Below, one piece after another: positions 763 through 25,692 of a stretch of 32,000 nt of DNA. A model generated the notes under the pieces. It saw nothing but the letters and a program-made list of their open reading frames with translations. It searched no databases and was not told the origin of the DNA. The stretch is from NCBI GenBank assembly GCA_023898645.1, contig CP060232.1, forward strand, positions 720,001 through 752,000. Reading direction: 5' to 3'. The DNA is from Candidatus Saccharimonadota bacterium. GTDB lineage: Bacteria; Patescibacteriota; Saccharimonadia; Saccharimonadales; Saccharimonadaceae. The position numbers and the translations under genes were made by a program. Within the stretch, counting starts at the first letter, position 1. Each line of letters opens with the position of its first letter.

Positions 763-913
763 TTTCGTATGTTGAATATTTCACCGTAATACCTCCTTAG
801 AATTGCTACGCTACAAAGTAGAGGTGTACCTTTGATGTGTCATAAAAATCATCAGGGTACATAGTACTTTTCCAAACTACAGCACGACAACACGCAATCA
901 GAAAGGTATCTTG

Positions 914-3244
914 ATGCGCTTCCGGAAAAACACGGAAACGACCATATCGGGACCAGTATTCTACGATGCCAAAGGCAAACGCTGGCATCGTGTCATGGAA
1001 AGCTTGCTTATCATGACCATTGTCATAGCAGCAGCGACATACTGGGCTGCGCCCCAGGCATTAGCGCCCCTTTGGAAGGAGTCGCTACATCAGGGCAACG
1101 GATTTCCGCGACAGCTCGCACATTCGTCAGAGCTAAAAAATATTCCCATACTCGGAACAGGCGACGGTGAAGTCTTGACTCGTATCGTTCGAGTCGAAAA
1201 GGATGGCGATACAGTCAACCTCATCGACCCCTTTACTGGCAACGTTTTGCGAACGGCACAACCTGGAGAAGATGAAGAAATCGGCAATAGTAAATACGCC
1301 CTTGACCACTTCGGGCAACCCGCAGACCATCAACTAATGCTGACGTTCGACGACGGACCCAGCGCCCGTTACACACCGGAAATACTGGATGTACTCGCCA
1401 AAGAGCACGTGCCAGCAACATTCTTTATGGTTGGAGCCAACATTGCAAAGAATCTGGACGTATTCAAGCGTGTCATCCGAGAAGGTCATATGGCGGGCAA
1501 CCACACACTGTTTCATATTGATTTCGACAAGCACTCGGATATCCGAAATCGTGAGGAGCTAATTGCTACCGATCGCATAATGCGAGCGGGCGCAAACTAC
1601 TCGTCACGGCTATTTCGTATGCCTTATGGAGATCCGGATAAAAATGCATTAGCAATGCTCCAGTCTCAACAACTAGGCTACATTCATGTCGACTTCGATC
1701 TTGATACGAAGGACTGGTCATATCCGCCTGGAGCAGACATTCCTGTTCCGCCGCTAGACGGCAAAGGGCATGTCGTTCTAATGCATGATGGCGGCGGAGA
1801 CCGATCGTCGACTGCCATTTTGCTTGAAAAATTCATCCAGGAAGCGAAGCGACAAGGTTACACCTTTAGCACGATTGCGCCGCTATTGCCCGAGGGATAT
1901 GTCCCTACTCACGGAGTAGCGCCGACTACTGCCGACCAAACAACACTACGAACGGTTCAGGTGTTTTGGGTCATTCCTAACAAAATGCTCGGATGGCTAT
2001 TTTGGTTCGGAGTAGGGTCGCTGTCTATCATGTCAGTGCTTTATCTGACACTAGCGCTCGCCAACAACCGTCGTCAGCACAAACGTAATTGGGTTAAAAC
2101 ACTCGACCATCATATGCCACATGTTAGTGTCGTCATGGCAGCATACAACGAAGAGAAGGTGATACGAAAAACCCTTAATACGCTACGCGCTAGCAACTAC
2201 CCGCAGTCCAAGCTTGAGGTAGTTGTCGTCAATGACGGCTCAAAGGACGGCACTCAAAAAGTGCTCGATGATTATGCGAGAAAATGGCCACAGCTTAAAG
2301 TGGTTCATCAGCCAAACGCTGGCAAGTCGTTTGCCATAAATAATGGCATATCACATGCGAGGCCAGAGTCGAAAATCATCGTGACTCTCGATGCAGATAC
2401 GTTGTTTGAACCGCAAACAATCCGTCTGTTGGTGCGACACTTCGTCAAGAAAAGTCACCGTCAGGATTCTAAGCCAGTTGGCGCGGTCGCAGGCCACGTG
2501 AAAGTCGGTAATCGTCGTAATATCATTACAGCATGGCAAAGCCTGGAATACATTTCAGGAATTTGCGTGACACGATTAGCGGAAGGAGCTATGGGTGCAA
2601 TTGCTATAGTCCCCGGCGCATGTTCCGCCTGGAGCCGTCGCGCGTTAGAGCAAATCGGTGGGTTGTCAGAAGATACGTTAGCCGAAGATGCTGATGCAAC
2701 TCTTCAACTACATCAGCTTGGGTACAGCGTGCTCCAAGAAAACACTGCCGTTGCTTACACTGAAGCGCCGGAATCAATCCGCACTCTGGCGAAGCAACGG
2801 TTGCGTTGGACTTACGGCAACGTCCAAGTACTTTGGAAGCATCGTTCGATGTTGATGCGACCAAAGTATGGGATGCTCGGGATGATTGCGCTACCATATG
2901 CGCTATTGTCTTTGATCGTTCCACTAATCTTCCTACCGTCGACGGTCATCGCAGCTGTCATCGGCTTGGCAAACGGTAACTGGCATAGCGTCGTGCTGTT
3001 CGCGGTATTTGTAATGACACTCCATATGGTCATATCGATTGTTGCGATAGTAGTAGCTCGAGAGCGAGCATGGCATCTACTAATCGTACCGATCTATCGA
3101 CTTATCTATGAGCCACTAAGAGCATACCTTTTGTACGCATCCTTATTACGGATACTACGAGGTACAGCTGCCAAGTGGAACAAGCTGGAGCGTCTTAACA
3201 GTGCCGCACTACAATCCCGCAGTAAGCTACCAGTAGCATCATAA
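914..3244 (+). CDS. Bifunctional polysaccharide deacetylase (CE4/NodB) / family 2 glycosyltransferase, membrane-embedded exopolysaccharide synthase
   Basis: ATG at 914; the ORF track starts at the in-frame TTG at 911. An N-terminal TM helix is followed by CE4 motifs LTFDDGP, GNHTLFH and RMPYG. The second half has GT2 motifs VVNDGSKDGT, LDADT (DxD) and QRLRW (QxxRW), flanked by several TM helices. Confidence 0.85.
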   Translation: MRFRKNTETTISGPVFYDAKGKRWHRVMESLLIMTIVIAAATYWAAPQALAPLWKESLHQGNGFPRQLAHSSELKNIPILGTGDGEVLTRIVRVEKDGDTVNLIDPFTGNVLRTAQPGEDEEIGNSKYALDHFGQPADHQLMLTFDDGPSARYTPEILDVLAKEHVPATFFMVGANIAKNLDVFKRVIREGHMAGNHTLFHIDFDKHSDIRNREELIATDRIMRAGANYSSRLFRMPYGDPDKNALAMLQSQQLGYIHVDFDLDTKDWSYPPGADIPVPPLDGKGHVVLMHDGGGDRSSTAILLEKFIQEAKRQGYTFSTIAPLLPEGYVPTHGVAPTTADQTTLRTVQVFWVIPNKMLGWLFWFGVGSLSIMSVLYLTLALANNRRQHKRNWVKTLDHHMPHVSVVMAAYNEEKVIRKTLNTLRASNYPQSKLEVVVVNDGSKDGTQKVLDDYARKWPQLKVVHQPNAGKSFAINNGISHARPESKIIVTLDADTLFEPQTIRLLVRHFVKKSHRQDSKPVGAVAGHVKVGNRRNIITAWQSLEYISGICVTRLAEGAMGAIAIVPGACSAWSRRALEQIGGLSEDTLAEDADATLQLHQLGYSVLQENTAVAYTEAPESIRTLAKQRLRWTYGNVQVLWKHRSMLMRPKYGMLGMIALPYALLSLIVPLIFLPSTVIAAVIGLANGNWHSVVLFAVFVMTLHMVISIVAIVVARERAWHLLIVPIYRLIYEPLRAYLLYASLLRILRGTAAKWNKLERLNSAALQSRSKLPVAS

Positions 3245-7222: not shown

Positions 7223-8047
7223 TTAGCGATACTCTGGTGGAATTGGTACCAGTGTTGCACCCTGAGGTACTGGAATTGTACCGTCATACACTAGGTAGGT
7301 GACACCGTTCTCTGTAAATGCCTCGTCTGGCACTTCGCTAGGACTGATGACGCGGTGATTTTGGATGTTAAGACCATCGTTGATGATCTTGCCGATATCA
7401 CCGGCAGCGTTAGATGCCCATACATCATTCGCATCAAGCTTTTCAACCGTACCAGGGACCGGTGGAGTCTCTTGTATACCAAGAGAATCTGTGATGGGTT
7501 TAAACGATTGCGCTATAGGGCTTGCCAAAATTCCTGCAGAGCCGTTACCGTCACCAGAATTCATGACGTTGACGTAAATACCTTGGTTAGCCAAGTCAGC
7601 CGCTGCTCCGTTGGTTACAAAGGCGCCTTCAGAAAAGCCGTAAAGTGTGATGTCGGCACCTGAATGTGCATAGACACTAGCCTCAACCGCACTGATTCCC
7701 ATAGCAACAGACTGATTCGTTGGAACATTACCGACAATTGGACCCATCTGCGCAGGGTAGTTCACGTCAATAACCTCTTCACCCTGATACAATGTTCCGT
7801 TGTTCCATAGTTCATGCTCAAGTCCCTGACTAGTACCGTCTCCAGCACCGCCGACGATAATTGCAACATCGTAACCACTAGCTTGTGCAACACCTTCACT
7901 CATGAACAGACCTGCGCCAACTGCGGTAAGACCAACAGCGAGAGCTCCCACGCACTTCTTTAATGTGAGCCTCTTTTCGTTATCACTCTTCTCAGCAAAA
8001 TTGCTAAGATTATTCGTTTCGCCAGCTGATATGATCTGCCTTGGCAT
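7223..8047 (-). CDS. Secreted GxSxG alpha/beta-hydrolase-like protein, PE-PPE/cutinase-like family, paralog 1 (274 aa)
   Basis: Signal-peptide-like N-terminus ending AQA|SG. It carries the shared motif series VGGAGDG, VNYPAQMGP, YGFSEGA, PVPGT, DANDVWA and QNHR, in the same order as the three genes that follow. Confidence 0.7.
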   Translation of the reverse strand: MPRQIISAGETNNLSNFAEKSDNEKRLTLKKCVGALAVGLTAVGAGLFMSEGVAQASGYDVAIIVGGAGDGTSQGLEHELWNNGTLYQGEEVIDVNYPAQMGPIVGNVPTNQSVAMGISAVEASVYAHSGADITLYGFSEGAFVTNGAAADLANQGIYVNVMNSGDGNGSAGILASPIAQSFKPITDSLGIQETPPVPGTVEKLDANDVWASNAAGDIGKIINDGLNIQNHRVISPSEVPDEAFTENGVTYLVYDGTIPVPQGATLVPIPPEYR

Positions 8048-8408: not shown

Positions 8409-9518
8409 TCAGTGGTGCGCAAACGTCGTAGGCTTTGCCACGAGCTGCACATTCGGAGTCACTGTTCCATGACCCGTATTAATCACATGCTTAGTTATTG
8501 TTGAGGCCGCAGATGAAACTTGGCTTGTGGCGTTCTGGACTGCTTGACCAGACGAAGCAACGCTATTCGTAACGGCGGTCGTCACGTCATTTACGACTGA
8601 TTTCACTGCCGACTCTACATTACTCTTAGACTCGTGGCGACTCTTGATTACGTTTAGCTTCTTCGTAGGATCTGGCTGCGGAGCAATGGTATTAAAGAAT
8701 GCATCACCAATAAATGTCGGATCAGCACCTGCCTCACGAATTGCACGGCTAATACCGTTAGTGTCGCTACCAAAGACATTGTAGGTTACGCCATCAACCA
8801 CGACAGTCTGATGCGGCTCGCCAGGAAATGGCATGCGATGGTCCTGAGGAATTCTGGCCATCTTGGTAATTTGGTCGCCAAGATTAAACGGATCAACGTT
8901 ACCAGTTGCATACCAGTCACCCTTGTCAAGATTCACAACAGTACCAGGAACTGGGTGAATCTGATTCGGACCAGGAATACCGATTAAGCCGGTAATAGGG
9001 CTGATAACACCTGCGAGTGGATGGTCTAGTAGACCAATTGGCGTCGTTGCATCGCCGGCAGTTTCAGGGTGGAAGTTAGCTGGTAGTTGACCGCCGTTTT
9101 CGGCAGCAAGACGCATACTAGCTTGATCAACACCAACAGCACCCTCAGAGAATCCATACGCACGAACACTCGGGTCTCCTTGATGTCGATGGTAGAAATC
9201 AACGATCTGGTTTGCTTGATCGTTGACCGAGTCAATCATTCGCTCGTTACCACAAACAGGAGCCAGAGCGCCAGACCACTGAACCTGGTAATTGTCAGCG
9301 CCATAGTCATACGTACCAGCTTGCTTAGCATGATCAACTGGGAACTGACTAGCACCGTCACATGCACCACCAACATACACGGTAGGGTCGGCGTTCGCTA
9401 CGGCGGTGCTATTAAAAATAAACCCTACAAGCGCAGCGCTAGCCAAACCGACTTTTACTGAACGTTTCAAGACGTCACTGTTCATATTTTTTTCTAAAGC
9501 GGGCCTATACTCGGCCAT
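8409..9518 (-). CDS. Secreted GxSxG alpha/beta-hydrolase-like protein, PE-PPE/cutinase-like family, paralog 2 (369 aa)
   Basis: N-terminus MAEYRPALEK..., hydrophobic core, then ANA|DP cleavage-like site. Motifs VGGACDG, WSGALAPVCG, YGFSEGA, HPVPGT, DKGDWYA and QDHR are present. The C-terminal tail is Ser/Thr/Val-rich. Confidence 0.7.
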   Translation of the reverse strand: MAEYRPALEKNMNSDVLKRSVKVGLASAALVGFIFNSTAVANADPTVYVGGACDGASQFPVDHAKQAGTYDYGADNYQVQWSGALAPVCGNERMIDSVNDQANQIVDFYHRHQGDPSVRAYGFSEGAVGVDQASMRLAAENGGQLPANFHPETAGDATTPIGLLDHPLAGVISPITGLIGIPGPNQIHPVPGTVVNLDKGDWYATGNVDPFNLGDQITKMARIPQDHRMPFPGEPHQTVVVDGVTYNVFGSDTNGISRAIREAGADPTFIGDAFFNTIAPQPDPTKKLNVIKSRHESKSNVESAVKSVVNDVTTAVTNSVASSGQAVQNATSQVSSAASTITKHVINTGHGTVTPNVQLVAKPTTFAHH

Positions 9519-10010: not shown

Positions 10011-11090
10011 TTAACAAGGAGCGGTACCAGGTGTCCAGTACTGTGAGCCGTCCTCTGCGAAACATGGCTGCTCACCGAAGAATTCCGGAGCTGAAAGATG
10101 AACTGGAGCCGCAGCAGGAGCTGGTGGGTTCAGCACATCACGAGGAGCAGGACCGACAATGTTCAAATCAGGAACAACTGGACCACTTTGAGGAAGTGGA
10201 GCAGGTGGGTTCAATACGTTCGCCGGGTCGTCCTGTGGAGCAATCGTGTTAAAGAATGGAGTTCCGATAGGACCTGGATTTGAACCGACTTCTTGAATAG
10301 CCTGATTGATTGCGCTATTGCGATCGTCGCCGTAAATCTGGTAGTTAACACCGTCACGCTGAACATTTACGCTTGGTTCGTTACCGATGTTTGGAATTCG
10401 ATGGTCTTGACCGACACGCGCAAACTTAGTGATGTCTTCACCTAAGTTAAGCGGAGCAACGTTCATGGTCGCATATGGGTCACCCGCATCCATAACCTCT
10501 GTCATGCCAGCTACTGGATGTAGTTCATCAGTAGTTGGGATACCAAGCATACCGTTGGTAATTGGCTGAATAGCCTTAGCAATTGGATGATTCTGGATTC
10601 CTACAGGGTTCCAACCATCACCAATGGCAGTTACGTGAACGTTACCAGGCAATTGTCCACCATGGTCTGCCGCAAGCTTCATAGCGGCCCAGTCGACGAC
10701 ACCCGCACCAAGTGAAAATCCTTCAACGTTCACTTGATCCCAGCTGTTTTGATAATATGCGTCAACAACTTTTTGACCACCGTCTGCGATTGATGCGCCG
10801 GTCTGAGTACCAAAGCCGTCGTCGCAAATTGGCGCCATTGAGGCAGGGTAGTTAATTTGAATATTATTTGCGCCAAAGTTGTAACGGCCGTCCTGAATAG
10901 CACGATCAACTGGAAGTTGGCTAGTTTTGTCGCATGCTCCGCCTACGTAAATGTTCGTATCGGCGTTTGCAGAACCAATACCGTTAAGGATGGCTCCTGT
11001 CATAGCCGCACCAGCTAAACCAAGTACAACAACTCGGTTAAGCGTGTTCTTGTTAGTAATTTTTTCTAAAGCAGGCCCGTATTTGGCCAT
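10011..11090 (-). CDS. Secreted GxSxG alpha/beta-hydrolase-like protein, PE-PPE/cutinase-like family, paralog 3 (359 aa)
   Basis: N-terminus MAKYGPALEK... with ANA|DT cleavage-like site. Motifs VGGACDK, INYPASMAPICD, EGFSLGA, HPVAGM, DAGDPYA and QDHR are present. The C-terminus has VLNPPAP repeats and a terminal Cys pair. Confidence 0.7.
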   Translation of the reverse strand: MAKYGPALEKITNKNTLNRVVVLGLAGAAMTGAILNGIGSANADTNIYVGGACDKTSQLPVDRAIQDGRYNFGANNIQINYPASMAPICDDGFGTQTGASIADGGQKVVDAYYQNSWDQVNVEGFSLGAGVVDWAAMKLAADHGGQLPGNVHVTAIGDGWNPVGIQNHPIAKAIQPITNGMLGIPTTDELHPVAGMTEVMDAGDPYATMNVAPLNLGEDITKFARVGQDHRIPNIGNEPSVNVQRDGVNYQIYGDDRNSAINQAIQEVGSNPGPIGTPFFNTIAPQDDPANVLNPPAPLPQSGPVVPDLNIVGPAPRDVLNPPAPAAAPVHLSAPEFFGEQPCFAEDGSQYWTPGTAPC

Positions 11091-11411: not shown

Positions 11412-13370
11412 TCACCCCTGACGAAGATTGCCAAGGAATTGCCGAACAGCTTGTCGAATAGGTCCGTTACCATTGCCAAAATTCGGCAATAGCGGAGCTA
11501 CTGGAGCTGGCGCGGGAACAGGTGCGGGTGCGGGAGCTGGAGCAGGATTGCTAATATTGTTGATAAAATTATTCACGATATTACGCAAAGGCGCTGGCGC
11601 TGGAGCGGGAACAGGAGCGGGTGCGGGAGCTGGCGCAGGAGTAGCTGGGGGCGTATAAGTATTCACTGGGGCGGGAGCTGGCGCAGGAGGTACATATGGA
11701 TGCACCGGCGGCGTATACGTATGATGTACTGGCGGCTGAAGATTGAGATTGATACCGTTATTCCTCGCGGCGCCATTGATAAAATCAACAACCGGATGAT
11801 TGGTTTCGCTCGGTAACGCCCTAGAAATATCATTAAACATCTTGTTAACATCATTAGTTACTGCATGAACAGCAGCAGGAATCTTAGTCGGATCTTGCAT
11901 AGCCTGCGCAATCAATGTTCCATCAGTATTCCCAAGATTCAGGCCATCCTGAATAACATCCGTCACCGGCTGCGGTACTGCAGCCATAATTCGCTCAGGT
12001 ACAGGGCTACCGCCTAGCGACTGACTAATTCCATGCGCCAAATCAGCCTGAGCTTTGGCTGCATTTGGCGGTGGAGGTAGCGGGCCGCTGCCTGGCGTAT
12101 TGCTGTTGATCGGTATTACGTCATTAAAGAAGTCATTGTAACCACTCATCACTGGAACACCCGCACCTTGCTGGATGAGCTGCGTAAACGGATGAACACC
12201 ATAATCCCACTCATTATGAATGACGCCATTTGAATCAGTCCATGTGACATGCGGCGCATTCGGATCCTCGACGACATGCCCGTAACCAAGGTCTATCGCC
12301 TGCGCGAAATTACCAAGCGGAGTCTGATTGCCACCGTTGCCCCATACGTCGTTTTGTGACGTATTGACAATTGTTCCGGGAGGAAGTGGCACCTCATCTG
12401 GCGAAATACCATCCAACTTCAGAAATGGCCTCACCGCTTGAGCAGAATCACTATTCCAAAAACCTTGACTGGAAACGGGAGAGCCATTCAGTACGAGGTG
12501 GACATTTGCCGGCATAGCTCCGCCGTTATTTGCCGCTACCATTTGTGCCGTCTTAGCGGCGGCGATGGTTCCTTCAGAAAAGCCTTCTATAGTAATTTGT
12601 GCATTTGAATCATAAGACAATTGCTGTTCGATTTGCGAATATGCAGATTGAGCGCCGATGTCTGTCGAGACATCCAGTGTCGGACCAGGACTGACTGGTG
12701 CGATCGATGCGGGGTATTGAATACCGACATAGTTTGGGTCACCCGCATGCCCACCGAGTACGCCGGCCGCGGTCGGGTCACCGAAACCACCAAAGACATA
12801 GTTGGTCGTATTAACAGTCAGTCTAACATCGTAATGACGATAAGGTCTCATCGGATCGGTGTGCCATACATCGATACCGCGCATACGCATGTACATCAAA
12901 CCAGCGTCAACAGCGAGAAGACCGCCAATAACAGAGGCGCCCATAACTCGATCCTGATTGCGACGAGCCTTTTTATATAATCGCTCAAAACGGCTGTCAT
13001 CATCGCTTGCAGCGTATTTTTCTTGTCGCGCATCACGCTTTGCTATACGTCGCCTCTGGCGCCTAGATGTTTTTTCTTGGACACCCCAAAAAGCGAGAGC
13101 TGCCGTCTGACCCATTGCAGCACGTAAGCGACCCATGCGAGATGTCGGCTGTTCTTCATCCGATTCTTCGTCAACAACTAATTCGATCTCTGTAAACGCA
13201 TAATTCCGGTCACCCTCAAACACCGGTGCCGCAAAGCTCTCTTCAAGCCCAGCTATCTCTAACGAACGCTCATCATTAATCAAAGTTTCGTAGGTTGCGA
13301 AATCAAAGTCCAAATTAAGCTCATTTGGATTACAGTTATCAGTAGTGGAGCTCGTTTCTATGCTCAACAT
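11412..13370 (-). CDS. Membrane-anchored GxSxG alpha/beta-hydrolase-like protein, PE-PPE/cutinase-like family, paralog 4 (652 aa) with a Pro/Ala-repeat C-terminus
   Basis: Domain order is: acidic N-terminal ~80 aa, an Arg-rich stretch ([16 protein letters not shown]), a single TM helix ([20 protein letters not shown]), then the family motifs. Those motifs are [36 protein letters not shown] and YGHV. A long C-terminal region follows, ending in duplicated [17 protein letters not shown] blocks. Confidence 0.7.
11495..11700 (-). repeat. In-frame (GCN-CCN)n Pro-Ala repeat blocks within paralog 4
   Basis: There are two ~45-bp near-identical blocks at about 11501-11546 and 11591-11639, plus a partial third at about 11668-11690. 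They encode [17 protein letters not shown], a spacer ([13 protein letters not shown]), then [18 protein letters not shown]. Confidence 0.8.
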
Positions 13371-14857: not shown

Positions 14858-15562
14858 ATGAAACAAGCTATAAAAAGATTTTTCATTGTCGGAGCCGCAA
14901 CAACTATTATGATGGCGCCAGCTATCGCAAGTGCCGACGACAACATAACGACAAGTGACGACAGCACGACAACAAGTAGCGAAAGCGAACCGACATCGAG
15001 CCCTACAAGCGAACCGCAAAGTCGCGCGGAAAGACAGTATAGAGAGAAAATCGATGCTCGGCTTGAACAGCTCAGACAGAACCGAAAAGCAAAATCAACC
15101 GAATCGGAGTCGGACCTTCATTCCAAACTAGATACCGCAAAGAAAAAGATTTGTGAAAATCGAGCAAGTAAGATCGACGAACTTATGTCTACCATGAAGA
15201 CGCGTCGCCAAAACGTCTACGACCGCATAAATAAGATAGTAACTGCCGTCGAGAACTTCTATGTATCAAAAGGCCTTTCCGTTAGTTCTTACAGCGATCT
15301 AGTTGCAGCCGTCAACGCAGCTCAATCAGCAACTCAGACAGCAATGGCAGCGGAACAAGCCGTACCAAACCTCGACTGTAGCGGAGATCACCCTCGCGCA
15401 GACGTAGCCAGCTTCAAAGAAAAACGCCAAGAAAGCATCGACGCCATGAAAGCCTATCGTGACGCCGTTAAGGACCTAATCAAGGCTGTCAAATCAGCTG
15501 CAGAAGCGGCAAATCCAACACCGACAGCAACACCTCAGGAGGGCTCAAGCAATGCACAATAA
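14858..15562 (+). CDS. Secreted hypothetical protein: Ser/Thr-rich N-terminal region followed by a helical region
   Basis: AAGGA Shine-Dalgarno upstream. Signal peptide MKQAIKRFFIVGAATTIMMAPAIASA|DD. A DDSTTTSSESEPTSSPTSEP tract is followed by a Lys/Glu/Ala-rich helical sequence with two Cys residues. Confidence 0.65.
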   Translation: MKQAIKRFFIVGAATTIMMAPAIASADDNITTSDDSTTTSSESEPTSSPTSEPQSRAERQYREKIDARLEQLRQNRKAKSTESESDLHSKLDTAKKKICENRASKIDELMSTMKTRRQNVYDRINKIVTAVENFYVSKGLSVSSYSDLVAAVNAAQSATQTAMAAEQAVPNLDCSGDHPRADVASFKEKRQESIDAMKAYRDAVKDLIKAVKSAAEAANPTPTATPQEGSSNAQ

Positions 15563-15833
15563 AAACGGATTCTCCATCATTGAAGCAGTTGTTCTAATGG
15601 CAGTTGTCGTTATAGTCGGGACACTTGGTTACATGGCCTACAACAACTTTGTCGCCAATAAAGACAGCGGGGCTGCGTCGACCACGGACACCGCCTCAAA
15701 AAGCATATCCACATCACCTGTTGTGATCAAGTCAAATTCAGATCTCAACAGTATAGCGAACGAACTTGATTCGATGTCACTCGAAGACAGCAGTAGCAGT
15801 AGTCAATTCGATACGGCTGCTAGCTCGTTTTAA
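15552..15833 (+). CDS. Prepilin-type N-terminal cleavage/methylation domain protein (type IV pilin / pseudopilin-like, 93 aa)
   Basis: MHNKNG|FSIIEAVVLMAVVVIVGTLGYMAY matches the class III signal (G|F, Glu at +5, hydrophobic helix). A strong AGGAGGG Shine-Dalgarno lies 9 nt upstream. It overlaps the preceding gene by 11 nt. Confidence 0.8.
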   Translation: MHNKNGFSIIEAVVLMAVVVIVGTLGYMAYNNFVANKDSGAASTTDTASKSISTSPVVIKSNSDLNSIANELDSMSLEDSSSSSQFDTAASSF

Positions 15834-17613: not shown

Positions 17614-20600
17614 ATGGATTTTGCTGGGCGCTACAAACAGTTAAACGAAGAGCAACGCCGAGCCGTTGACACGATTGACGGACCGGTCATGGTGATAGCA
17701 GGACCGGGCACGGGTAAAACCGAATTGCTCGCTATGCGCGCAGCCAACATACTCAAACAAACCGACGAGCTGCCTGAAAATATACTATGCCTGACATTCA
17801 CTGACGCCGGCGTCATCGCCATGAAAAAACGCCTCCGTGAAATCATCGGGCGCGATGCTTACAAGGTGCCGGTCATGACCTTTCACTCCTTTGGCACCGA
17901 CATCATGAACCAATACCCTGAGTATTTCTATAGCGGCGCATCATTTCGACCGGCCGACGAATTAACTCAGCTACAAATAATCACTGACATCCTCGACAAG
18001 CTGCCTTATGACAACCCTCTGAAGGCCAAAATGAACGGTGAGTATACTTCGATAAAAAGTATCATTTCAGCCATTGGCGACATCAAAGGCGCCGGTCTGA
18101 CAGATGAACAATTCCGTCTATTACTCAATGCGACGGAATCAACTGTCGACAAAGTTGAGCCGCTACTCGTCGACGCCATCGGCGACGGTATGCGCAGCAA
18201 AACAGCGATAACAAGATTTGAAACGTTACTAGAAAAGCTTCGAGGTATCGACGAGCCAAAGCCATTAGAAAACTTTTCGACACTCATAAAATTGTTAACG
18301 AACACCCTTGAAGATGCTCTCGGTGAAGCTAAGACACTAAACAAAACCAAGCCTCTGACCGGCTGGAAAGACCAGCTCGTTGAAAAAGATGCTGCAAAAA
18401 ACATCGTTATGAAAGCTCGCAAACAACTACGAAAATTGCGCGCCCTCAACGTCGTGTATTTCGAATACTTAGACCAAATGCAGACCGCCGAATTCTATGA
18501 TTTCAACGATATGATTTTGCAGGTCGTCAAAGCAATCGAGACTCAAAATGATTTACGCTATGACTTGCAGGAAAAATACCAATACATCATGGTTGATGAG
18601 TTTCAAGACACCAACATGGCACAAATGCGTATACTGCATAACCTCACCAACAATCCTGTCGTAGAGGATTCGCCTAATATACTTGTTGTTGGTGATGACG
18701 ACCAAGCGATCTATGGCTTCCAAGGCGCCGAAGTGAGCAACATCCTCAATTTTCGTCATACATATCCACAAACGATCAATATCACGCTGACCAACAACTA
18801 TCGCTCTGTCCAACCCGTGCTCGACAGCGCCCGAGACGTTATTACGCAGGGCAGTAACCGCCTTGAAACTCACTTGCCCGAGCTCGACAAAACACTAACA
18901 GCGCAAACAAAAACCACAAAGCCGAATCTCGAACTTGTTTCGTTTTCGACACCTCACCACGAACGTCAATGGGTTGCGTTGTCCATAAAGTCGCTTATAG
19001 ATAATGGAGTGCAACCTAGTGAAATTGCTGTCATTGCTCGCAAGCACGCCGACCTTGTATCGCTCATAGGATACTTTACCGAACACGACGTACCGCTCAG
19101 TTATGACCGCAAAGACAACGTACTCGACGATGAAGCCGTCACGATACTAGAACGCATAGGGGAGACAGTGCATGCCATCGGCAATGGCAACTACGGCAAA
19201 GCAAATGCACTCTTGCCTGAGCTTATTAGCCATCCATTATGGGACGTTAATCCGACTGCCGTTTGGGAAATCAGCTTAGCGGCACATCGCGAGCGCAAAC
19301 ATTGGCTTGAAGTCATGCAACAACATGACGCGACTCGGCAGCTTGCTGCTTGGCTTATAGCGTGTTCGGCGCAAGCACAGCATCAACCATTAGAACGTAT
19401 GCTCGACATCCTCATTGGCAACACGTCGATTGACGGTTCATACACATCGCCGTTCAAAGACTACTTTTTTGGCAGTGGTGCGCGCGAAGGCGACATGTCT
19501 ACATACAGTGCTCATCTCAAGAATCTCTCGGCAATTCGCAAAGCATTGCACGATCATGCATTTGAGGTTGTATCTCCGCAGCTCGATAACTTTTTGGACT
19601 TCATGGACGCATGCCGCAACAGCGAAACACGGATTACAAGCACCCGCCATATTGGTGAGGACGGCGCCAGCGTGCAGCTACTCAGCGCTCATGGATCAAA
19701 AGGACTTGAGTTTAACCATGTATTTATCATAAATGCGACCGACGCAGTATGGGGCGAGAAGGCAAGCGGTAAATCGTCAGTAATCGCTTTTCCTCCGCAT
19801 CTGCGGCTGCGCCGCAACAATAATGATTACGACGAACGTCTGCGACTCTTTTATGTTGCCATGACGAGGGCTCGACACGGTTTGCATATTGCGTATGCCA
19901 ACGAAAACGATGCAACCAAAGCGATGCTCCCGGCGGCATTCTTACTCGGAAGCCCAATCCCAGCACGAGAAGAGTCGGCAGACACATCAGAACAAGCCGA
20001 ACTCGATACAGCCGAACACTCATGGTATGCGCCAATTGTTAATATGCCGCAAATAACCATGCACGATTATTTGGCGCCGATCTTAAAAGATTACAAACTG
20101 AGCGCCACCCATGTGAACCGATTTATCGATGTTACGACTGGCGGCCCGCAACGATTCCTTATAGACACGCTTTTGCATTTTCCATCTGCATCGAGCCCCT
20201 TGGCAAGCTATGGCACTGCTATTCACGACACACTTCAGCGCGCACATGATCATATGCGTTCAACCGGCTCGCTACAACCAGAAGAAGATATTTTGCATGA
20301 ATTCGAAAAGAATCTTGATAAACAAGAACTCACAGATAACGAACGGCGCGACTTTTTGCAAAGGGGCAGTGACGCACTGAGCGCCTTTCTTAAAACGCAT
20401 CACGATAATTTTACGAAAGATCAGTTCGCGGAGCTGAACTTTGCTCATCAGGATGTAATGGTCGGTGATGCCCGCCTCACTGGAAAACTCGATGTCGTTA
20501 CATTCAATAAAGACACGCTCACAGCCAGTGTCACCGATTACAAAACCGGAGGCACACTAACGTCGTGGGAAAAAGGACTTGATTATCAAAAAATTAAAGC

Positions 20601-20901
20601 TCACAAATACCGCCAACAACTTTTGTTTTACAAACTACTCATTGAAAACTCACGAGATTGGCGCAACTACACGATGCACGAAGGTATATTGCAATTCGTT
20701 GAGCCAAACTCTGCAGGGCAAATTGTCGACTTACAGCTTCAAGATATCGACAAAGAAGAGGTAGAGCGTTTTTCGCGTCTTATAAGCATAATCTGGAATC
20801 ATATCCAAGAGTTGTCATTCCCCGACACAACGCAATACGACCAAACAATAGCAGGTATCCGCAAATTCGAAGACGATTTGCTTGCTCAAAACAAAAATTA
20901 A
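17614..20901 (+). CDS. UvrD/PcrA-like SF1 helicase fused to a C-terminal PD-(D/E)XK (RecB/AddB-type) nuclease
   Basis: Helicase motifs: Walker A AGPGTGKT, motif II VDEFQDTN, VGDDDQAIYGFQGA and NNYRS. C-terminal nuclease motifs: GKLDVV, VTDYKTG and YRQQLLFY. Confidence 0.85.
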   Translation: MDFAGRYKQLNEEQRRAVDTIDGPVMVIAGPGTGKTELLAMRAANILKQTDELPENILCLTFTDAGVIAMKKRLREIIGRDAYKVPVMTFHSFGTDIMNQYPEYFYSGASFRPADELTQLQIITDILDKLPYDNPLKAKMNGEYTSIKSIISAIGDIKGAGLTDEQFRLLLNATESTVDKVEPLLVDAIGDGMRSKTAITRFETLLEKLRGIDEPKPLENFSTLIKLLTNTLEDALGEAKTLNKTKPLTGWKDQLVEKDAAKNIVMKARKQLRKLRALNVVYFEYLDQMQTAEFYDFNDMILQVVKAIETQNDLRYDLQEKYQYIMVDEFQDTNMAQMRILHNLTNNPVVEDSPNILVVGDDDQAIYGFQGAEVSNILNFRHTYPQTINITLTNNYRSVQPVLDSARDVITQGSNRLETHLPELDKTLTAQTKTTKPNLELVSFSTPHHERQWVALSIKSLIDNGVQPSEIAVIARKHADLVSLIGYFTEHDVPLSYDRKDNVLDDEAVTILERIGETVHAIGNGNYGKANALLPELISHPLWDVNPTAVWEISLAAHRERKHWLEVMQQHDATRQLAAWLIACSAQAQHQPLERMLDILIGNTSIDGSYTSPFKDYFFGSGAREGDMSTYSAHLKNLSAIRKALHDHAFEVVSPQLDNFLDFMDACRNSETRITSTRHIGEDGASVQLLSAHGSKGLEFNHVFIINATDAVWGEKASGKSSVIAFPPHLRLRRNNNDYDERLRLFYVAMTRARHGLHIAYANENDATKAMLPAAFLLGSPIPAREESADTSEQAELDTAEHSWYAPIVNMPQITMHDYLAPILKDYKLSATHVNRFIDVTTGGPQRFLIDTLLHFPSASSPLASYGTAIHDTLQRAHDHMRSTGSLQPEEDILHEFEKNLDKQELTDNERRDFLQRGSDALSAFLKTHHDNFTKDQFAELNFAHQDVMVGDARLTGKLDVVTFNKDTLTASVTDYKTGGTLTSWEKGLDYQKIKAHKYRQQLLFYKLLIENSRDWRNYTMHEGILQFVEPNSAGQIVDLQLQDIDKEEVERFSRLISIIWNHIQELSFPDTTQYDQTIAGIRKFEDDLLAQNKN

Positions 20902-20912
20902 GAAAAACGCCA

Positions 20913-23900
20913 CTACCATGTAGTCAGCGATGCGCGGACCCATGTGTTTGTTGCAACGCAGATATATACGTATGATGAATCCCACGCGACGGTACCCGTA
21001 GTACCTGCACTTGATGCAGACGCAGGCGCACCACCAGAACCAATCACGGGCGCTGTCAGTGTTGGACTTGTAAGGGTTTTATTCGTCAGTGTTTGAGTGC
21101 CAGTAGTAGTTACAACTGGCGCCCCACCAGCCGTCACGCTAGAAGTCTGTGCATTGACAGAAGCTCCAGTAGGAACAGTTCCTTGGAAAGCGACTCCAGG
21201 CGTATACGCCAAAGTACCTACATGGGTGTATCTAGATATTTCCGAAACAACAATTGCTGAACCATTATTATATGCTTTTATCCAGAGCTCGAAAGCCGCA
21301 CCAGAACCATCTGAAATAATCTTGAAACTGTCCGCCCCCAAAGCCGTTCCGGCAGCCTTGGAAAGCAACTCAATAGAAGCTGAACTCGTGTTGGAAGTAA
21401 TCCCAGCCTCAAGCGCTACAATCGCTGAAGTGTTGTGGGCAAAAGAAACAAAACTAAGACAAAGACTTATCCGATCCAAAGTGGTGTTGCCGGGGGTATA
21501 CGTAAGAACTTTCGTCCATTGCCCCGAAACTGTAGACAGAGAAGTCCAAACCTTTCTTGCCGCATCTGGTGTTGCACTGGCAGGAATGTCGGTAATAGTG
21601 TTGTTTGCACCAGACAACGTCTTATTAGTAAGGGCTTGTGTACCGGAAACAGTGGCGACTTCAACACCATTTGCCTGCACAACCCCCGTACCCTTGGTTT
21701 TTATATTGAATCCTATATGAGTGTCAGACCCGTACGACTCCAAATAGGGCGCAACGCCCGTTGCGCTATTGTAAATAGTAGTAGCATTTACGGCGCCACT
21801 GTTTGCAGTAACATCGAGAACTCCTGTACCATTAGTCGCAAGAATTCTATTCACCTTCGGACTTGTTAATGTCTTGTTCGTAAGCGTCTGAGCTGACGAA
21901 ACATCTACCGCATCGACGCCATTTATCTGAACAGTACCCGAACCTTGCGATGCCAAACTCAAATTTACATTCGTATCACTGCCGATAGCCCTTAGGGTCA
22001 CTGGCGCACCGCCGGTGGCGCGGTTTGATATCTGCAAATAATTAACGGCACTAGCGACTGCGTTAAAAGCCATCATCACATTGGCATTGGCATCACGAAT
22101 GTACCCGTCGGATATGATAGGTCCCGATATGCTCGGACTTGTCAGCGTCTTGTTCGTAAGCGTCTGAGCACCGGTGGTTGTAGCTACCGGAACGCCATTT
22201 TGATTAAGTGTACCGGTACCCTTGGGAACCATATTGATACTGATGTTGCTATCACCTCCAGTTGCAGTAAACGCAACCGGCGCAGAATTTGAACCGTATA
22301 CAGCACCACCGCCACGAGGAAGATATCCGTCGGCACGACCCGGACTATTATATGCATATGAGAACAGTGAGCTAATCCGAACCTGAGCATCCCATGGTCG
22401 CCCAAGTGTATAACGAATCTTCGTGTAGGTCGTGCCGTCACCAGTGTAATAATATCTATGAACCGGATCAGAATTGTTCGTAACCGAATAAACTGTTGAC
22501 CAGCCGCCCTTGTATATTTCAATCTGTACATCCTTAGTGCCCCAACCATGCGGGAACACGATACCAACATTACAACCATAGCGCTGCAAGATAGACGGGG
22601 CTATATCAACAGTGATGATGTAAGTGTCTGTTGACACTGCTGGATTGTCCAGACAAAATGAAGTATCCGCTCTGAACCAGTTGTCCGCCACTGTACCACC
22701 ACCGACATTGTAAAAGCCCGTGCCGCTACCATAAGTATTGAATGGCAAGCCGTTCTTTTGTACATCTATCGCACCACCGCGCAAAAGATTGTAGGTAAGA
22801 TCAGAGCTATAGTTTGGTTCAAATGTATACCAACCGTTTTCGGGATTAGTGTTAAGCGATACGCTTTTTAGAACATTTGCGGAATTGTATACGGTAACCT
22901 CAGCACGATTTGCAAGGTCTGTAGTCAGGCTCGTAACCGATGATTGAGCGATATTAGATAGAGTGTTTGATGAACCACTGATTGTCTTATTCGTCAGCGT
23001 CTGCGTGCCTGTAGTAGTAACGACGGGTACATAATTGACCCTGACCTCACCCGTACCCTTTGAGTTGAGCTCCAGATGAATATTTGCATCGTTGCCCAGT
23101 GCCTGAATTAGTGGCCCGCCACCAGCCACCTGCCCAAGAATCCTGACATAGTTAACTGAAGACGCATAAGCTGAAACCTGAAGGGAAGGCCTGTTGAAGG
23201 GGCTAAGATATACACTCTCCCACTGATCAGAAAAAGAAACGTGTTTATTTCCGGCAGGGTCATAAATCGCGTCTATCTTCGGGTTTGTCAGGGTCTTGTT
23301 GGTGAGGGATTGCGTACCGGTCGTAGTGACAACATCAACACCGTTAGCCTGAACTGTGCCGGTACCTTTGGTTGTGAGGTTGAGGTTGATATTAGTGTCG
23401 GTGCCGCTAGCCATCAGATATGGTGCGTTACCGGTGGTGTGAGCTACTGCATAAAGATAATTGACAGTGCTATCCGCTTGGAATCCGGCCCTGAACGCCA
23501 CCGAAGTGGGGCTACGCAACTGGAAACCTCCGACTCCCTTAGAGTTAAGGTTAATACCGATATCAGTGTCGCTACCGCTGGCCCACACCCCAATGGACTG
23601 ACCGGCAACGCTATTTGCCACAGTAAAGTAGTTGGCCGCGCTAGCAAGAGAACCAATTTCTATCGCATTATTGCCAAAAGCATCTTTGACCATGTTGATC
23701 TTCGGATTTGTCAGGGTCTTGTTGGTGAGCGTCTGCGTACCAGAAGTAGTTACGACTTCTACGCCGCCAGTATAGAGCTTCCCTGTACCCTTGGGGTTGA
23801 GGCTGATACCGATATTCGTGTCAGTACCCTGTGCGTATAGACCAACATTCGTACCAGTAATACTAGCGACGGCCTGCACATAGTTCACCGCAGACGCAGG

Positions 23901-25181
23901 TGCGTAAAGGGCCAGCGTGCTTAGTCCTTGAGTCGCGTCTTTGATGATATCGACTTTCGGAGTGGTGAGAGTTTTATTTGTCAGGGTCTGCGTGCCGGTA
24001 GTGGTGACTACTGATGCTCCGCCCACTGTCACATCAGTGGGCGTAATAGCAAAACGCTCAGTACCGGCTACATAAAATTTGTGACTATTACCACCAGCGG
24101 GAACCTGATATTCTTGCACGCCAGCAGAAATACCAATACCATATCCCGTATAAAACTTAAGTTTAAGGTTTCCCGAGGTGCCGACCGTGTTTGACCCAAC
24201 GCTCCCACCAAGATCAAGGTAAACAGGGGTCGTACTACCTGTGAGTGCGGTACTGCCGAGGGATACATTCCCGGCGTTATCCACCACGAACTTGGATGCG
24301 CCGCCCACCTGAGCGTCGATTAGCCTTTTGGTTCCGGAGCCAGTTGCTGTTTCAGTTGGGTTAATGAGGAGTGCTGTATAGCCGGCGGTAGACGATTGAT
24401 TAATTGTCGGAGATAAACTTAACGAATTCTGTGTCGATGACGACCCCATCAAAGAGCCGTTTACTAAAAGTTGATTTGCACCTGCTATACCAGATGGCGC
24501 CGCTAAGGTTGCTTTGTTTCCAGTGGCAGCAGACAGTGCGAACGTCACGCCAGAAGATGATGCAAGCACTATGTCTCGACCGGCTCCCGTACCACCTTGA
24601 TCTGTTTCAAGCCAGAACGCATTACCACCCCAGCGCGCTCTTGCTCGTTCGTAGTTCGTTGTTTGGTCGGCGGTGTTATAAAAGACAAGCGTGCCAGACT
24701 GCTGTATTTCATTTGTGCCGGTGATTTGTGCTGAGGCTAGCGTCTTATTCGTCAGCGTCGCCGTCGCAGCGTTCTTCGTGGCATCACTGGTGTTGTCGAC
24801 CTGATCAAGACCGACATCGGTCTTAGTGAGGGAGACAGCACCTGTTTTGGAAGCAACGGATGTGACAGGAGCAACTTCATTGAGTTTGGTTTGGACTGCA
24901 GTGGCAAGTTTGGTTTCTTCGATGGTGCCATCGGCAATGAGCGCATTGGTGATAGAACCGTCGGCTATGACAGTATCGTCAATGGTATTTGGAGCAAGGG
25001 TTTCAACAGTGATTGCCGCAGGAGCAATAGCAGCAGTTGTAACGGCATTAGGAGCAATGGCGTCGCTGGTGACACTGTCGGTTTTCAGTGTGCCGTCAGA
25101 GGCGTGAACCTGAGAGAGAAAGGTGTTGAGTATTGTTCCCCAATTACCACTGTCTCCTCCAGGAGTTGGAAGACGTGCCAT
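20913..25181 (-). CDS. Giant (1422 aa) repeat-rich surface/fibre-like protein with phage tail-fibre-like N- and C-termini
   Basis: Uninterrupted ORF with an ATG start and no signal peptide. The N-terminus is MARLPTPGGDSGNWGTILNTFL, followed by I-x-x-x-A-I/DG-x-I repeats. There are nine copies of a (V)TT(T)GTQTLTNKTL core with ...NY...G.D.NI.L.L..KGTG.. modules. The C-terminus is GTVAWDSSYVYICVATNTWVRASLTTW. Confidence 0.85.
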   Translation of the reverse strand: MARLPTPGGDSGNWGTILNTFLSQVHASDGTLKTDSVTSDAIAPNAVTTAAIAPAAITVETLAPNTIDDTVIADGSITNALIADGTIEETKLATAVQTKLNEVAPVTSVASKTGAVSLTKTDVGLDQVDNTSDATKNAATATLTNKTLASAQITGTNEIQQSGTLVFYNTADQTTNYERARARWGGNAFWLETDQGGTGAGRDIVLASSSGVTFALSAATGNKATLAAPSGIAGANQLLVNGSLMGSSSTQNSLSLSPTINQSSTAGYTALLINPTETATGSGTKRLIDAQVGGASKFVVDNAGNVSLGSTALTGSTTPVYLDLGGSVGSNTVGTSGNLKLKFYTGYGIGISAGVQEYQVPAGGNSHKFYVAGTERFAITPTDVTVGGASVVTTTGTQTLTNKTLTTPKVDIIKDATQGLSTLALYAPASAVNYVQAVASITGTNVGLYAQGTDTNIGISLNPKGTGKLYTGGVEVVTTSGTQTLTNKTLTNPKINMVKDAFGNNAIEIGSLASAANYFTVANSVAGQSIGVWASGSDTDIGINLNSKGVGGFQLRSPTSVAFRAGFQADSTVNYLYAVAHTTGNAPYLMASGTDTNINLNLTTKGTGTVQANGVDVVTTTGTQSLTNKTLTNPKIDAIYDPAGNKHVSFSDQWESVYLSPFNRPSLQVSAYASSVNYVRILGQVAGGGPLIQALGNDANIHLELNSKGTGEVRVNYVPVVTTTGTQTLTNKTISGSSNTLSNIAQSSVTSLTTDLANRAEVTVYNSANVLKSVSLNTNPENGWYTFEPNYSSDLTYNLLRGGAIDVQKNGLPFNTYGSGTGFYNVGGGTVADNWFRADTSFCLDNPAVSTDTYIITVDIAPSILQRYGCNVGIVFPHGWGTKDVQIEIYKGGWSTVYSVTNNSDPVHRYYYTGDGTTYTKIRYTLGRPWDAQVRISSLFSYAYNSPGRADGYLPRGGGAVYGSNSAPVAFTATGGDSNISINMVPKGTGTLNQNGVPVATTTGAQTLTNKTLTSPSISGPIISDGYIRDANANVMMAFNAVASAVNYLQISNRATGGAPVTLRAIGSDTNVNLSLASQGSGTVQINGVDAVDVSSAQTLTNKTLTSPKVNRILATNGTGVLDVTANSGAVNATTIYNSATGVAPYLESYGSDTHIGFNIKTKGTGVVQANGVEVATVSGTQALTNKTLSGANNTITDIPASATPDAARKVWTSLSTVSGQWTKVLTYTPGNTTLDRISLCLSFVSFAHNTSAIVALEAGITSNTSSASIELLSKAAGTALGADSFKIISDGSGAAFELWIKAYNNGSAIVVSEISRYTHVGTLAYTPGVAFQGTVPTGASVNAQTSSVTAGGAPVVTTTGTQTLTNKTLTSPTLTAPVIGSGGAPASASSAGTTGTVAWDSSYVYICVATNTWVRASLTTW
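21060..24775 (-). repeat. Nine dispersed in-frame copies of a ~45-bp core encoding VVTTTGTQTLTNKTLT(S/N)P, defining ~85-140-aa protein modules
   Basis: Core copies, read on the + strand as (g/a)gtcttgtt/gtcttatt...ctg(a/c)g..., lie near 21070, 21612, 21868, 22143, 22980, 23288, 23712, 23968 and 24738. Confidence 0.8.
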
Positions 25182-25235: not shown

Positions 25236-25264
25236 AGTATAGATAAGAAATAGGGAAGTGTCAA
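25236..25264 (-). promoter_or_regulatory. Putative sigma70-like promoter of the giant gene
   Basis: Minus-strand TTGACA (25264-25259), 17-nt spacer, TATACT (25241-25236), about 55 nt upstream of the ATG at 25181. Confidence 0.55.
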
Positions 25265-25406: not shown

Positions 25407-25479
25407 CGGGGTGTAGTTTAATGTAGGTAAAACCTTTCGCACCACGAAAGAGTTGCAGGTTCGAATCCTGTCACCCCGA
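25407..25479 (+). tRNA. tRNA-like gene with canonical acceptor, D and T arms but an anomalous anticodon arm; isotype undetermined
   Basis: Hand fold. The acceptor CGGGGTG / CACCCCG has 7 perfect pairs, with A as discriminator. The D arm is GTTT-AATGTAGGTA-AAAC. The T arm is GCAGG-TTCGAAT-CCTGT. The anticodon region CTTTCG-CACCA-CGAAAG folds as a 6-bp stem with a 5-nt loop. Read instead as a 7-nt loop it is GCACCAC, with C33 and anticodon ACC. No CCA is encoded. Confidence 0.6.
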
Positions 25480-25536
25480 CTAATCGCCGTTCATTCGTTC
25501 GGCGAATCGTTTACGATTACCGAATCGAGAACGGGC

Positions 25537-25692
25537 ATGCAATGTCAAACCTGTAAAGGCTCTGGCGTTTGCCAAGGCTGTCGCGGCAAAGGCTGCAACA
25601 ACTGTTATTCAAAACGAAACGTCATGGGTGGCTGGGGAGGCACCTATGGCAATGGCGATTGTGCCGTATGTCGAGGCAAAGGCCATAAATAA
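25537..25692 (+). CDS. 51-aa DnaJ-type (CxxCxGxG) zinc-finger microprotein
   Basis: Sequence MQCQTCKGSGVCQGCRGKGCNNCYSKRNVMGGWGGTYGNGDCAVCRGKGHK. It has four CxxC pairs, three of them in full CxxCxGxG form. The internal ATG is used because the track ORF start (25453) runs through the tRNA-like gene. Confidence 0.5.
   Translation: MQCQTCKGSGVCQGCRGKGCNNCYSKRNVMGGWGGTYGNGDCAVCRGKGHK

Follow-up and report, generated by a model that had tools for sequence, protein, structure and literature searches.

The subject of this analysis is a stretch of 32,000 nucleotides (nt) from a Candidatus Saccharimonadota bacterium (contig CP060232.1, positions 720,001 to 752,000; the whole 32-kb stretch is called the window below), and within it the gene H6797_03785, which encodes a protein of 1422 amino acids (aa) and is annotated in the database as 'hypothetical protein'. 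Sequence comparisons placed this chromosomal gene in a large family of mosaic proteins of the phage-tail-fibre type, which is expanded in Saccharibacteria (class Saccharimonadia, Candidate Phyla Radiation (CPR)/Patescibacteria). They also showed that the fibre is composed of modules that are likewise present in the tail proteins of actinobacteriophages. The family lies among housekeeping genes, often in tandem and in multiple copies, and at shared loci its divergence and module swapping were found to outpace the neighbouring genes. An initial annotation of this DNA had listed a domesticated fibre that is used as an adhesin among several possibilities. The favoured interpretation here is also that of a chromosomal mosaic fibre, which would serve as an adhesin for host recognition, and we see roughly even chances that this is correct.

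The gene had been regarded as an orphan. This view could not be maintained, as at least 235 homologs were found at E<=1e-3, including two paralogs that are encoded on the same 1.13-Mb contig (1,134,346 bp; the record of this metagenome-assembled genome is labelled Candidatus Nomurabacteria). The labels of the homologs were overwhelmingly Saccharibacteria or Saccharimonadales. Local alignments to 120 homologs revealed that the domains are shared as a mosaic. A pattern search with the N-terminal module against species-representative genomes yielded 531 places. The best 75 of these 531 loci were nearly all from Saccharibacteria, and one genome contained at least eight loci. At many family loci, two to four fibre genes were arranged in tandem.

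The N-terminal module of 35 aa has 12 invariant positions across 29 homologs, and in the homologs it always begins at residue 1. The first 110 aa were matched by 5,724 cluster representatives. The module also begins proteins in 25 viral contigs, where it is followed by a pectate-lyase-type beta-helix, by collagen-like or by other domains, an architecture of the tailspike type. In one of these viral contigs (L084), the genes for the major head protein, the neck, the major tail protein and the tape measure (phrog_991, E 1e-52) are followed by the gene for the motif-bearing protein, which itself scored as a tail spike (E 3e-13). In addition, the module was found in the cultured Streptomyces phages BRock, LuckySocke and Alone3. 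Because the viral contigs, the gene order in L084 and the Streptomyces phages all place the module on phage proteins, it is a genuine N-terminus of phage tail-mounted binding proteins. The module was also observed in a 230-aa protein from the genome record of an actinobacterium, Sinomonas cellulolyticus (NZ_BNCM01000003.1, L021:9998-13361), in a region with 61% GC. This region was considered as a prophage and rejected, as it has no prophage tail module and holds helicases, a transposase, a lipase and a pilin-like gene instead; it may stem from a mobile element or from foreign DNA.

Links to phages were found at several separate sites in the protein. The region of aa 29-157 matched the tail fiber protein family phrog_892 (E 3.3e-8), and a tblastn search with aa 1-155 gave matches at aa ~68-133 to genes for a 'minor tail protein' in 457 phage records, chiefly of phages of Mycobacterium (205), Gordonia (101) and Arthrobacter (81). 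The region of aa 393-745 matched a second family of tail fiber proteins (phrog_38058) over five stretches and is the stretch most widely common to the homologs. For the central domain, a match to phrog_33513 was obtained (E 3.7e-26), and tblastn matches at aa ~780-970 were obtained to 47 phage records, including gp112 of Mycobacterium phage Myrna (E 3e-19) and ~40 Gordonia phages, mostly annotated as minor tail protein. One of the proteins that match the central domain, gp29 of Gordonia phage Dardanus, is encoded among minor tail genes downstream of the tape measure gene. The C-terminal tip (aa 1376-1422) matched phrog_21017, a family of unknown function. The likeness to tail fibre or minor tail proteins, which had been noted for both termini, was thus borne out by PHROG families, by the N-termini in viral contigs, by the phage records and, for aa ~780-970 and the Gordonia and Mycobacterium phages, by sequence as well as fold; for the C-terminus it consists of the match to phrog_21017. 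Scans of the whole protein against Pfam and NCBIfam yielded nothing useful (the sole match was a sub-threshold 'BAT'), and a sequence search against the PDB gave no match. Since a homolog of 2426 aa was found in a housekeeping hot spot (LepA/HrcA/GrpE/TatC) and a homolog of 2110 aa on a phage-like contig, the wider fibre family spans cells and phages.

Monomer models of the two halves of the protein were generated with AlphaFold2, each from an alignment of 40 homologs. The model of the C-terminal half had a mean predicted local distance difference test (pLDDT) value of 72 and included two confident beta-sandwich domains at aa ~843-945 and aa ~1205-1350 (pLDDT 83-95). A Foldseek search of this half against BFVD retrieved Gordonia phage minor tail proteins and Myrna gp112 (E 1e-13 to 1e-14). 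The best matches in the PDB were carbohydrate-binding modules of the type CBM32/F5-8 type C (E 1e-4); 11 PDB matches had E<=1e-3, all with a probability of 1.00, and for single-module CBM32 chains the TM scores to the target were 0.56-0.70 over ~150 aligned columns. The Foldseek output names no domain as the source of the CBM32 match, and sequence profile searches did not settle which one it is. We infer that the match belongs to the central domain (aa 746-975) and not to aa 1201-1352, because the central domain has a conserved pattern (...VITVD...VTIExYxxGxWxTxY...TKIRYTL...RIxSLFA), which we take to be discoidin-like. PDB searches with profiles of both beta-sandwich domains yielded nothing significant, and a Pfam scan of 14 central-domain homologs gave scattered matches only (E>0.04). 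Taken together, the models indicate that at least one domain has a sugar-binding fold, and the central domain is probably lectin-like (CBM32/discoidin-like).

The genomic context of the family was analysed by calling and clustering the open reading frames (ORFs) of 100 fetched loci. Two hot spots for fibre genes were found, one with the order TilS-FtsH-MurJ-LepA-TatC-[fibres]-HrcA-GrpE-DnaK and one with the order Fpg-HolA-TruB-[fibres]-S15-PNPase-UDG-RNase J. Pfam confirmed LepA, TatC and TruB as neighbours, and in one locus (L102) LepA, HrcA, GrpE and TatC were labelled by Pfam; HrcA, GrpE, DnaK, MurJ, FtsH, TilS, S15, PNPase, Fpg, HolA, UDG and RNase J were named by reading representative sequences. 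Among 97 other non-redundant immediate neighbours, the most frequent PHROG/Pfam families were of a cellular kind, namely ribonucleotide reductase, SecA, RNA polymerase, tRNA synthetases, Mur ligases, amylases, GDSL lipases and MMPL. The only gene clusters common to genome loci and viral loci were the fibre family and one PKD/lectin family. A comparison of genome pairs at the hot spots showed that the housekeeping proteins are 70-83% identical, and the fibres 44-64%, often over 9-30% of the fibre length. Matches over such a small fraction mean that only the anchor or one module is shared, and the divergence of the fibres is the pattern that is expected under diversifying pressure with module exchange.

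Several further observations were made at the fetched loci. The immediate neighbours of the Saccharibacteria fibre genes in loci L001-L075 include LGFP repeats, MMPL, GDSL lipases, a cellulase, CBM_4_9 and a strong F5/8 type C domain. A number of these families are typically associated with the envelope of Actinobacteria or with the binding of glycans. Type IV pilin-like genes (Pfam N_methyl) were present near the fibres in 14 of ~72 loci; this is roughly no excess for pilin-rich genomes and was not used as evidence. Export via the Tat pathway was considered, as TatC adjoins the fibres at one hot spot, and rejected, as the N-terminus has no twin-arginine motif.

The local setting of the fibre gene in the window bears on an explanation that the initial annotation had also raised, namely a remnant of a degraded prophage at a tRNA site. 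The gene would then be decaying and functionless, and the prophage would once have been integrated at the neighbouring tRNA gene. A tRNA gene does adjoin the fibre gene, and the parts of the fibre resemble phage proteins. However, neither capsid, portal, terminase, integrase or lysis genes, in agreement with what had been noted before, nor a tape measure, baseplate or minor tail gene beside the fibre gene were found in the window with Pfam and PHROGs. The GC content (0.491), the GC content at third codon positions (GC3, 0.446) and the codon use of the fibre gene are inside the range of the neighbouring genes, and the 3' end of the tRNA occurs only once in the window; because of this native composition and the missing duplicate, neither a recent insertion nor a prophage scar at the tRNA is supported. 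The reading frame of 4.3 kb is intact and is preceded by a strong promoter-like site. Lastly, the family is kept with a conserved N-terminus at hundreds of loci, and its members lie at many housekeeping loci in many genomes. The explanation as a prophage remnant is therefore already largely refuted, and we regard it as very improbable.

Cultivated Saccharibacteria are epibionts or parasites of Actinobacteria (PMC10633639), and Gordonia amarae is the prey of Ca. Mycosynbacter amalyticus, which requires the mycolic-acid envelope of this host (PMC11880426). For the favoured function as an adhesin, the following mechanism is proposed. The protein would form an elongated fibre, probably a trimer as in the phage relatives. 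The conserved N-terminus would dock on a conserved structure of the Saccharibacterium cell, and the lectin-like domain or domains would bind envelope glycans of the presumed actinobacterial host. The repertoire of fibres might then help to set the host range, by analogy to the mosaic adhesive trimer (MAT) fibres of the predator Bdellovibrio.

Several results weigh against this function as a cell-borne adhesin. The 1422-aa protein has no signal peptide, as had been stated before, and no lipobox or membrane anchor; its N-terminus is not hydrophobic, and 119 of the 120 homologs inspected have no Sec-type N-terminus. Instead, the N-termini of the homologs are a handful of recurrent N-termini of the phage-fibre type. 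A module that is used by phages would fit the assembly on a phage-like particle at least as well as that on a cell. A comparison of the protein with phage fibre structures by Foldseek, which had been advised, was informative for the C-terminal half, but not for the N-terminal half, the model of which was poor (mean pLDDT 60) and gave nothing significant against the PDB (E>2), which includes domain A, introduced below. T4 gp34, a tailspike and the Bdellovibrio fibre Bd2133 were among the matches of the N-terminal half and were given no weight at this E value. The likeness to CBM32 is at the level of the fold, and no sequence match to Pfam PF00754 or to the PDB was found. Among the fetched loci, the fibre locus of the window is syntenic with L064 alone and for the genes left of the fibre only; a conserved operon was therefore rejected. 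The absence of capsid, portal, terminase and tape-measure families from the 97 neighbours applies to the 25 most frequent families. Furthermore, no pilin of the Pam pili, which are known from Ca. M. amalyticus, was recognised in the window, and the products of the genes that separate the fibre gene from those for ATP synthase match no solved structure, a result that covers PamA and PamB insofar as the PDB copy contains them.

The missing Sec-type N-terminus and the N-terminal module used by phages keep alive an alternative, in which a phage-like particle that is made by or infects the Saccharibacterium carries the protein as its receptor-binding fibre (a prophage elsewhere, a tailocin, as the initial annotation had also suggested, or a particle resembling a gene transfer agent). 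The assembly of such a particle would take place in the cytoplasm, lysis would set it free, and its fibre genes would be scattered, which would account for the missing signal peptides. It would also be in line with the position of the module on phage tailspikes directly after the tape-measure gene and with the occurrence of some homologs on phage-like contigs (P0010, viral contigs). A precedent for scattered genes is the gene transfer agent of Rhodobacter, the fibre and spike genes of which are located away from the main structural cluster. However, at least eight dispersed copies in one genome of ~1 Mb and tandem arrays, all amid core housekeeping genes, are not what such a particle would predict. 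Phage structural families are absent from the window and from the top-25 lists of the 97 neighbours, apart from the fibre family and one lectin/PKD family no gene cluster links the genome loci to the viral loci, and the composition of the fibre gene is native. In addition, the literature searches retrieved no description of a tailocin or a gene transfer agent from Saccharibacteria. On balance, we consider a phage-like particle rather unlikely, yet it is the strongest of the alternatives.

A further alternative is a free fibre or lectin that is released by lysis, by vesicles or by another route and that coats or modifies the host surface, e.g., by occupying phage receptors, without tethering the epibiont. 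The receptor-binding-type domains in common with phages of Actinobacteria and the absence of an anchor and a signal peptide would be compatible with this, and TM7x is reported to alter the phage susceptibility of its host (Zhong et al. 2024, as cited in PMC11665869). The strongly conserved N-terminal docking module, however, argues for the attachment to a partner structure, and the idea is purely speculative; it appears improbable.

The interpretation as a chromosomal adhesin can be extended to a tentative and more far-reaching proposal, which we regard as possible, albeit doubtful. Saccharibacteria may have captured receptor-binding modules from the phages of their own actinobacterial hosts. 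These modules would be displayed on a phage-type anchor, exported without a signal peptide and docked on a structure of the cell, which might be a pilus. In this case, host attachment would depend chiefly on the rapidly changing set of fibres, and epibiont and phage would compete for receptors.

Roles in the attachment of a Saccharibacterium or another CPR epibiont to a particular host have been ascribed to type IV pili, to Pam pili and to some adhesins of a generic kind. We know of no specificity determinant of a CPR epibiont that is comparable to a phage receptor-binding protein, and full-text searches of the literature found no paper that characterises such a fibre family in Saccharibacteria or Patescibacteria. 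The family offers concrete candidates for deletion, swapping and the use as probes in cultivable pairs such as Mycosynbacter/Gordonia and Southlakia/Actinomyces. If the interpretation as an adhesin is true, Saccharibacteria would join Bdellovibrio as a second, independent example of the re-use of a phage fibre architecture by bacteria that live off bacteria. It would also raise a mechanistic puzzle, i.e., how fibres without signal peptides are exported and mounted. Phage-fibre-derived recognition proteins as such are already known from bacteria living off bacteria; here, they would occur in CPR epibionts, where the anchor is of the phage type and a signal peptide is absent.

The layout of the fibre protein and the features next to its gene are summarised in the table.

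Table. Features of the fibre gene and its upstream region, in window coordinates
Feature	Position	Strand	Characteristics
Whole coding sequence, 1422 aa + stop	20913..25181	minus	ATG start; H6797_03785 (P0001), 100% identity
N-terminal anchor module, aa 1-35	25077..25181	minus	MARLPxPGxDxGxWGxILNxxLxQ...DGxLK
IAxxAV/IADGxI segments, then first TNKT junction, aa 36-150	24732..25076	minus	junction motif ...VDNTSDATKNAATATLTNKTL; phrog_892
Domain A, beta-rich, aa 151-320	24222..24731	minus	YNTADQTTNYER...TAGYTALLINPTETATGSGTKRLIDAQVGG.SKF.VDN.GNV; homolog sharing and AlphaFold
Linker + short beta segment, aa 321-392	24006..24221	minus	low confidence, pLDDT 42-60; shared by fewer homologs
Shaft region 1, TNKT junctions 2-5, aa 393-745	22947..24005	minus	four (A/S)xVNY...GxDTNI...KGTG units; phrog_38058
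Central globular beta-sandwich domain, inserted, aa 746-975	22257..22946	minus	phrog_33513, tblastn, Foldseek
Shaft region 2, TNKT junctions 6-8, aa 976-1200	21582..22256	minus	three GxD(T/S)N...(K/Q)GxG units; pLDDT 57-82
Second confident beta-sandwich domain, aa 1201-1352	21126..21581	minus	W.K..T...DSFK.IS.G.G...ELW.K...YE.SR...W...P.G; pLDDT 85-95
Last TNKT junction + C-terminal tip, aa 1353-1422	20916..21125	minus	PASASSAGTTGTVAWDSSYVYICVATNTWVRASLTTW; phrog_21017, E 6e-7; pLDDT ~80
Promoter-like site TTGACA-17-TATACT	25236..25264	minus	~55 nt upstream of the start codon; 11/12 consensus positions; consensus match only
tRNA	25407-25480	plus	ARAGORN; Rfam 25407-25479, 50.7 bits

The ORF of 1422 aa is the longest of the window, as had been stated; its strand was now determined. 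The N- and C-terminal sequences that had been quoted were correct, and the repeated IA segments described next to the N-terminus are represented by five I/L-A-x-x-x-V/I segments at aa 42-87; a VDNTSD motif also lies within aa 36-150. Segments of the IAxxAV type (in the fibre at aa ~30-100) were observed 10 to 37 times in giant metagenomic proteins of 1,200-4,700 aa (P0121, P0124, P0139, P0173), which form a separate repeat family. Domain A was found in 56 of the 120 homologs, in an N-terminal, central or C-terminal placement, and was modelled with beta strands throughout (pLDDT 62-76). The first shaft region had pLDDT values of 60-81, and paired beta strands were predicted in each of its units. 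The second beta-sandwich domain is common to about 40 homologs, and the respective alignment (A4) has the invariant positions W28, K93, W106, E120, Y132, P143 and G145. The ending ...G..GQ.A.D..Y.Y.CTATNTW.RAAL.TW closes at least 11 homologs, and two alternative recurrent tip types were found in others. An ORF of 158 aa that lies between two tandem fibre genes (L050:9508-9984) and also occurs in L010, L036, L060 and L074 resembles one of these alternative tip types (...TLTASTACTFTMPTATAGKSF.L.LKQ...), as though the tip domain were a separate gene.

The initial annotation had divided the body of the protein into nine modules. The motif L(T/S)NKT(L/I) indeed occurs nine times (aa 143, 400, 485, 626, 729, 1008, 1100, 1184 and 1365), and 0.005 occurrences of LTNKT would be expected from the composition alone. 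However, only seven units of the second motif, GxD(T/S/A)(N/D/H)(I/V)...(K/Q)GxG, are present, and the TNKT motifs are spaced by 58-279 aa. The spacing is uneven because three of the intervals hold other domains, i.e., the two inserted globular domains and the separate N-terminal one. Two flavours of the motif could be discerned: TNKTLTxP precedes a shaft unit, and TNKTxSGxxNTxx(N/D)I precedes an inserted globular domain (aa 729, 1184). The motif behaves as a junction between modules. The DNA cores of the repeats had been called near-identical, which was an overstatement: their identity is 60-92% over stretches of 23-67 nt, and no exact repeat in the gene exceeds 23 nt. These repeats are too short and too diverged for an obvious recombination substrate. 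Module shuffling, which the repeats had been said to allow, is real at the level of the family.

The other features of the neighbourhood had been described correctly. A gene for a helicase-nuclease of the UvrD/AddA type (17614-20901) is convergent to the fibre gene, with 11 nt between the two; the tRNA gene and the promoter-like site were likewise confirmed. In the region as a whole, promoter-like sites are not more frequent (they are fewer) than in shuffled sequence. The tRNA was called by ARAGORN as Gly with the anticodon ACC, in the anticodon loop GCACCAC, which has a C at position 33. A U at this position is near-universal, and the ACC anticodon for glycine is unusual in bacteria. Just past the tRNA, there is a small cysteine-rich ORF (25537-25692, plus strand; MQCQTCKGSGVCQGCRGKGCNNCYSK...GDCAVCRGKGHK), the repeated CxxCxGxG motifs of which resemble a DnaJ zinc finger. 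Further on, a protein of 381 aa is encoded (26891-28036, minus strand), which has a signal-like N-terminus, a long coiled-coil middle and a tail rich in Gly, Ser and Leu and does not match any solved structure. It was considered as a phage gene and rejected, as its weak PHROG matches to endolysin and tape-measure families are confined to the coiled-coil, low-complexity part.

The remainder of the window is ordinary chromosome, with genes for ATP synthase beta and epsilon, a dihydrouridine synthase, a TrmA-like methyltransferase, an enzyme of the glycogen-branching type, 6-phosphogluconate dehydrogenase and a glycosyltransferase-deacetylase fusion. The ATP synthase epsilon and beta genes are located at 29672-31878, ~4.5 kb from the fibre gene, and the window stops inside the ATP synthase operon. 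The fusion protein (777 aa, 911-3244, plus strand) consists of a polysaccharide deacetylase domain and a family-2 glycosyltransferase that resembles chitin and poly-N-acetylglucosamine synthases, and it may be involved in the synthesis of a surface polysaccharide. Four paralogous secreted proteins are encoded on the minus strand (7223-8047, 8409-9518, 10011-11090 and 11412-13370). Matches to the PE-PPE domain were obtained for the first and the third (E 4e-8 and 3e-6, respectively), all four have a motif of the serine-hydrolase type (GFSEGA/GFSLGA), and the two largest have tails that are rich in Pro or Pro/Ala. Because the PE-PPE fold is typical of mycobacteria, these proteins could be enzymes against the lipid-rich envelope of a mycolic-acid-bearing host. 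A type IV pilin-like protein of 93 aa (MHNKNGFSIIEAVVLMAVVV...) with a weak match to a PHROG 'pilin' is encoded at 15552-15833 on the plus strand.

The closest known counterparts of the fibre are tail proteins of actinobacteriophages. Among the minor tail proteins, tail fibres and tailspikes of these phages (e.g., Dardanus gp29, Myrna gp112 and the collagen-repeat protein of Streptomyces phage BRock), counterparts exist for the N-terminal module, the VDNTSD-type motif, the central beta-sandwich and the C-terminal motif. In both groups, an anchor at the N-terminus, a shaft and binding domains are combined in a modular manner, and a signal peptide is absent. In contrast to the phage genes, the fibre gene resides in a cellular chromosome amid housekeeping genes, with no partner tail genes in view, and fibre genes occur in multiple copies in one small genome. 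The fibre is also much longer than most of its phage relatives. For CBM32/F5-8 type C (discoidin) modules, the likeness is restricted to the superposition of one confident beta-sandwich of the fibre, and a match at the sequence level was not obtained. In addition, this domain is embedded in a fibre and is not attached to a glycoside hydrolase.

A second comparison concerns the pili of the same group of organisms. A 2026 preprint that deals with the Pam pili of Ca. M. amalyticus mentions in a single sentence that a 'tail fibre-like protein' and genes for ATP synthase are found next to the pam pilus operon of CPR bacteria in a conserved manner (Troman et al., doi 10.64898/2026.03.03.709456). The group of organisms, the kind of annotation and the nearby ATP synthase genes agree with the gene analysed here; the preprint offers no sequence or accession, and the identity is thus unproven. 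Unlike the gene next to the pam operon, most of the fetched family members are not near ATP synthase genes.

The MAT fibres of Bdellovibrio bacteriovorus all have a signal peptide and a beta-rich N-domain of ~130 aa, and the binding of sugars was shown for one of them (Caulton et al. 2024, PMC10769870). In the Saccharibacteria family, this signal peptide and N-domain are replaced by an anchor of 35 aa of the phage type, and sugar binding is suggested by the fold. The structures of MAT fibres gave no significant match in sequence or fold; the only one retrieved was Bd2133 (8ond), with E 5.8-6.9 and for a model of low confidence. The organisms differ as well, as Bdellovibrio is a Gram-negative predator, whereas the fibre belongs to a monoderm CPR epibiont. 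Nevertheless, in both cases a bacterium that lives off bacteria has a multi-gene family of phage-fibre-like proteins, with a conserved N-terminal region and variable, swappable binding domains at the C-terminus.

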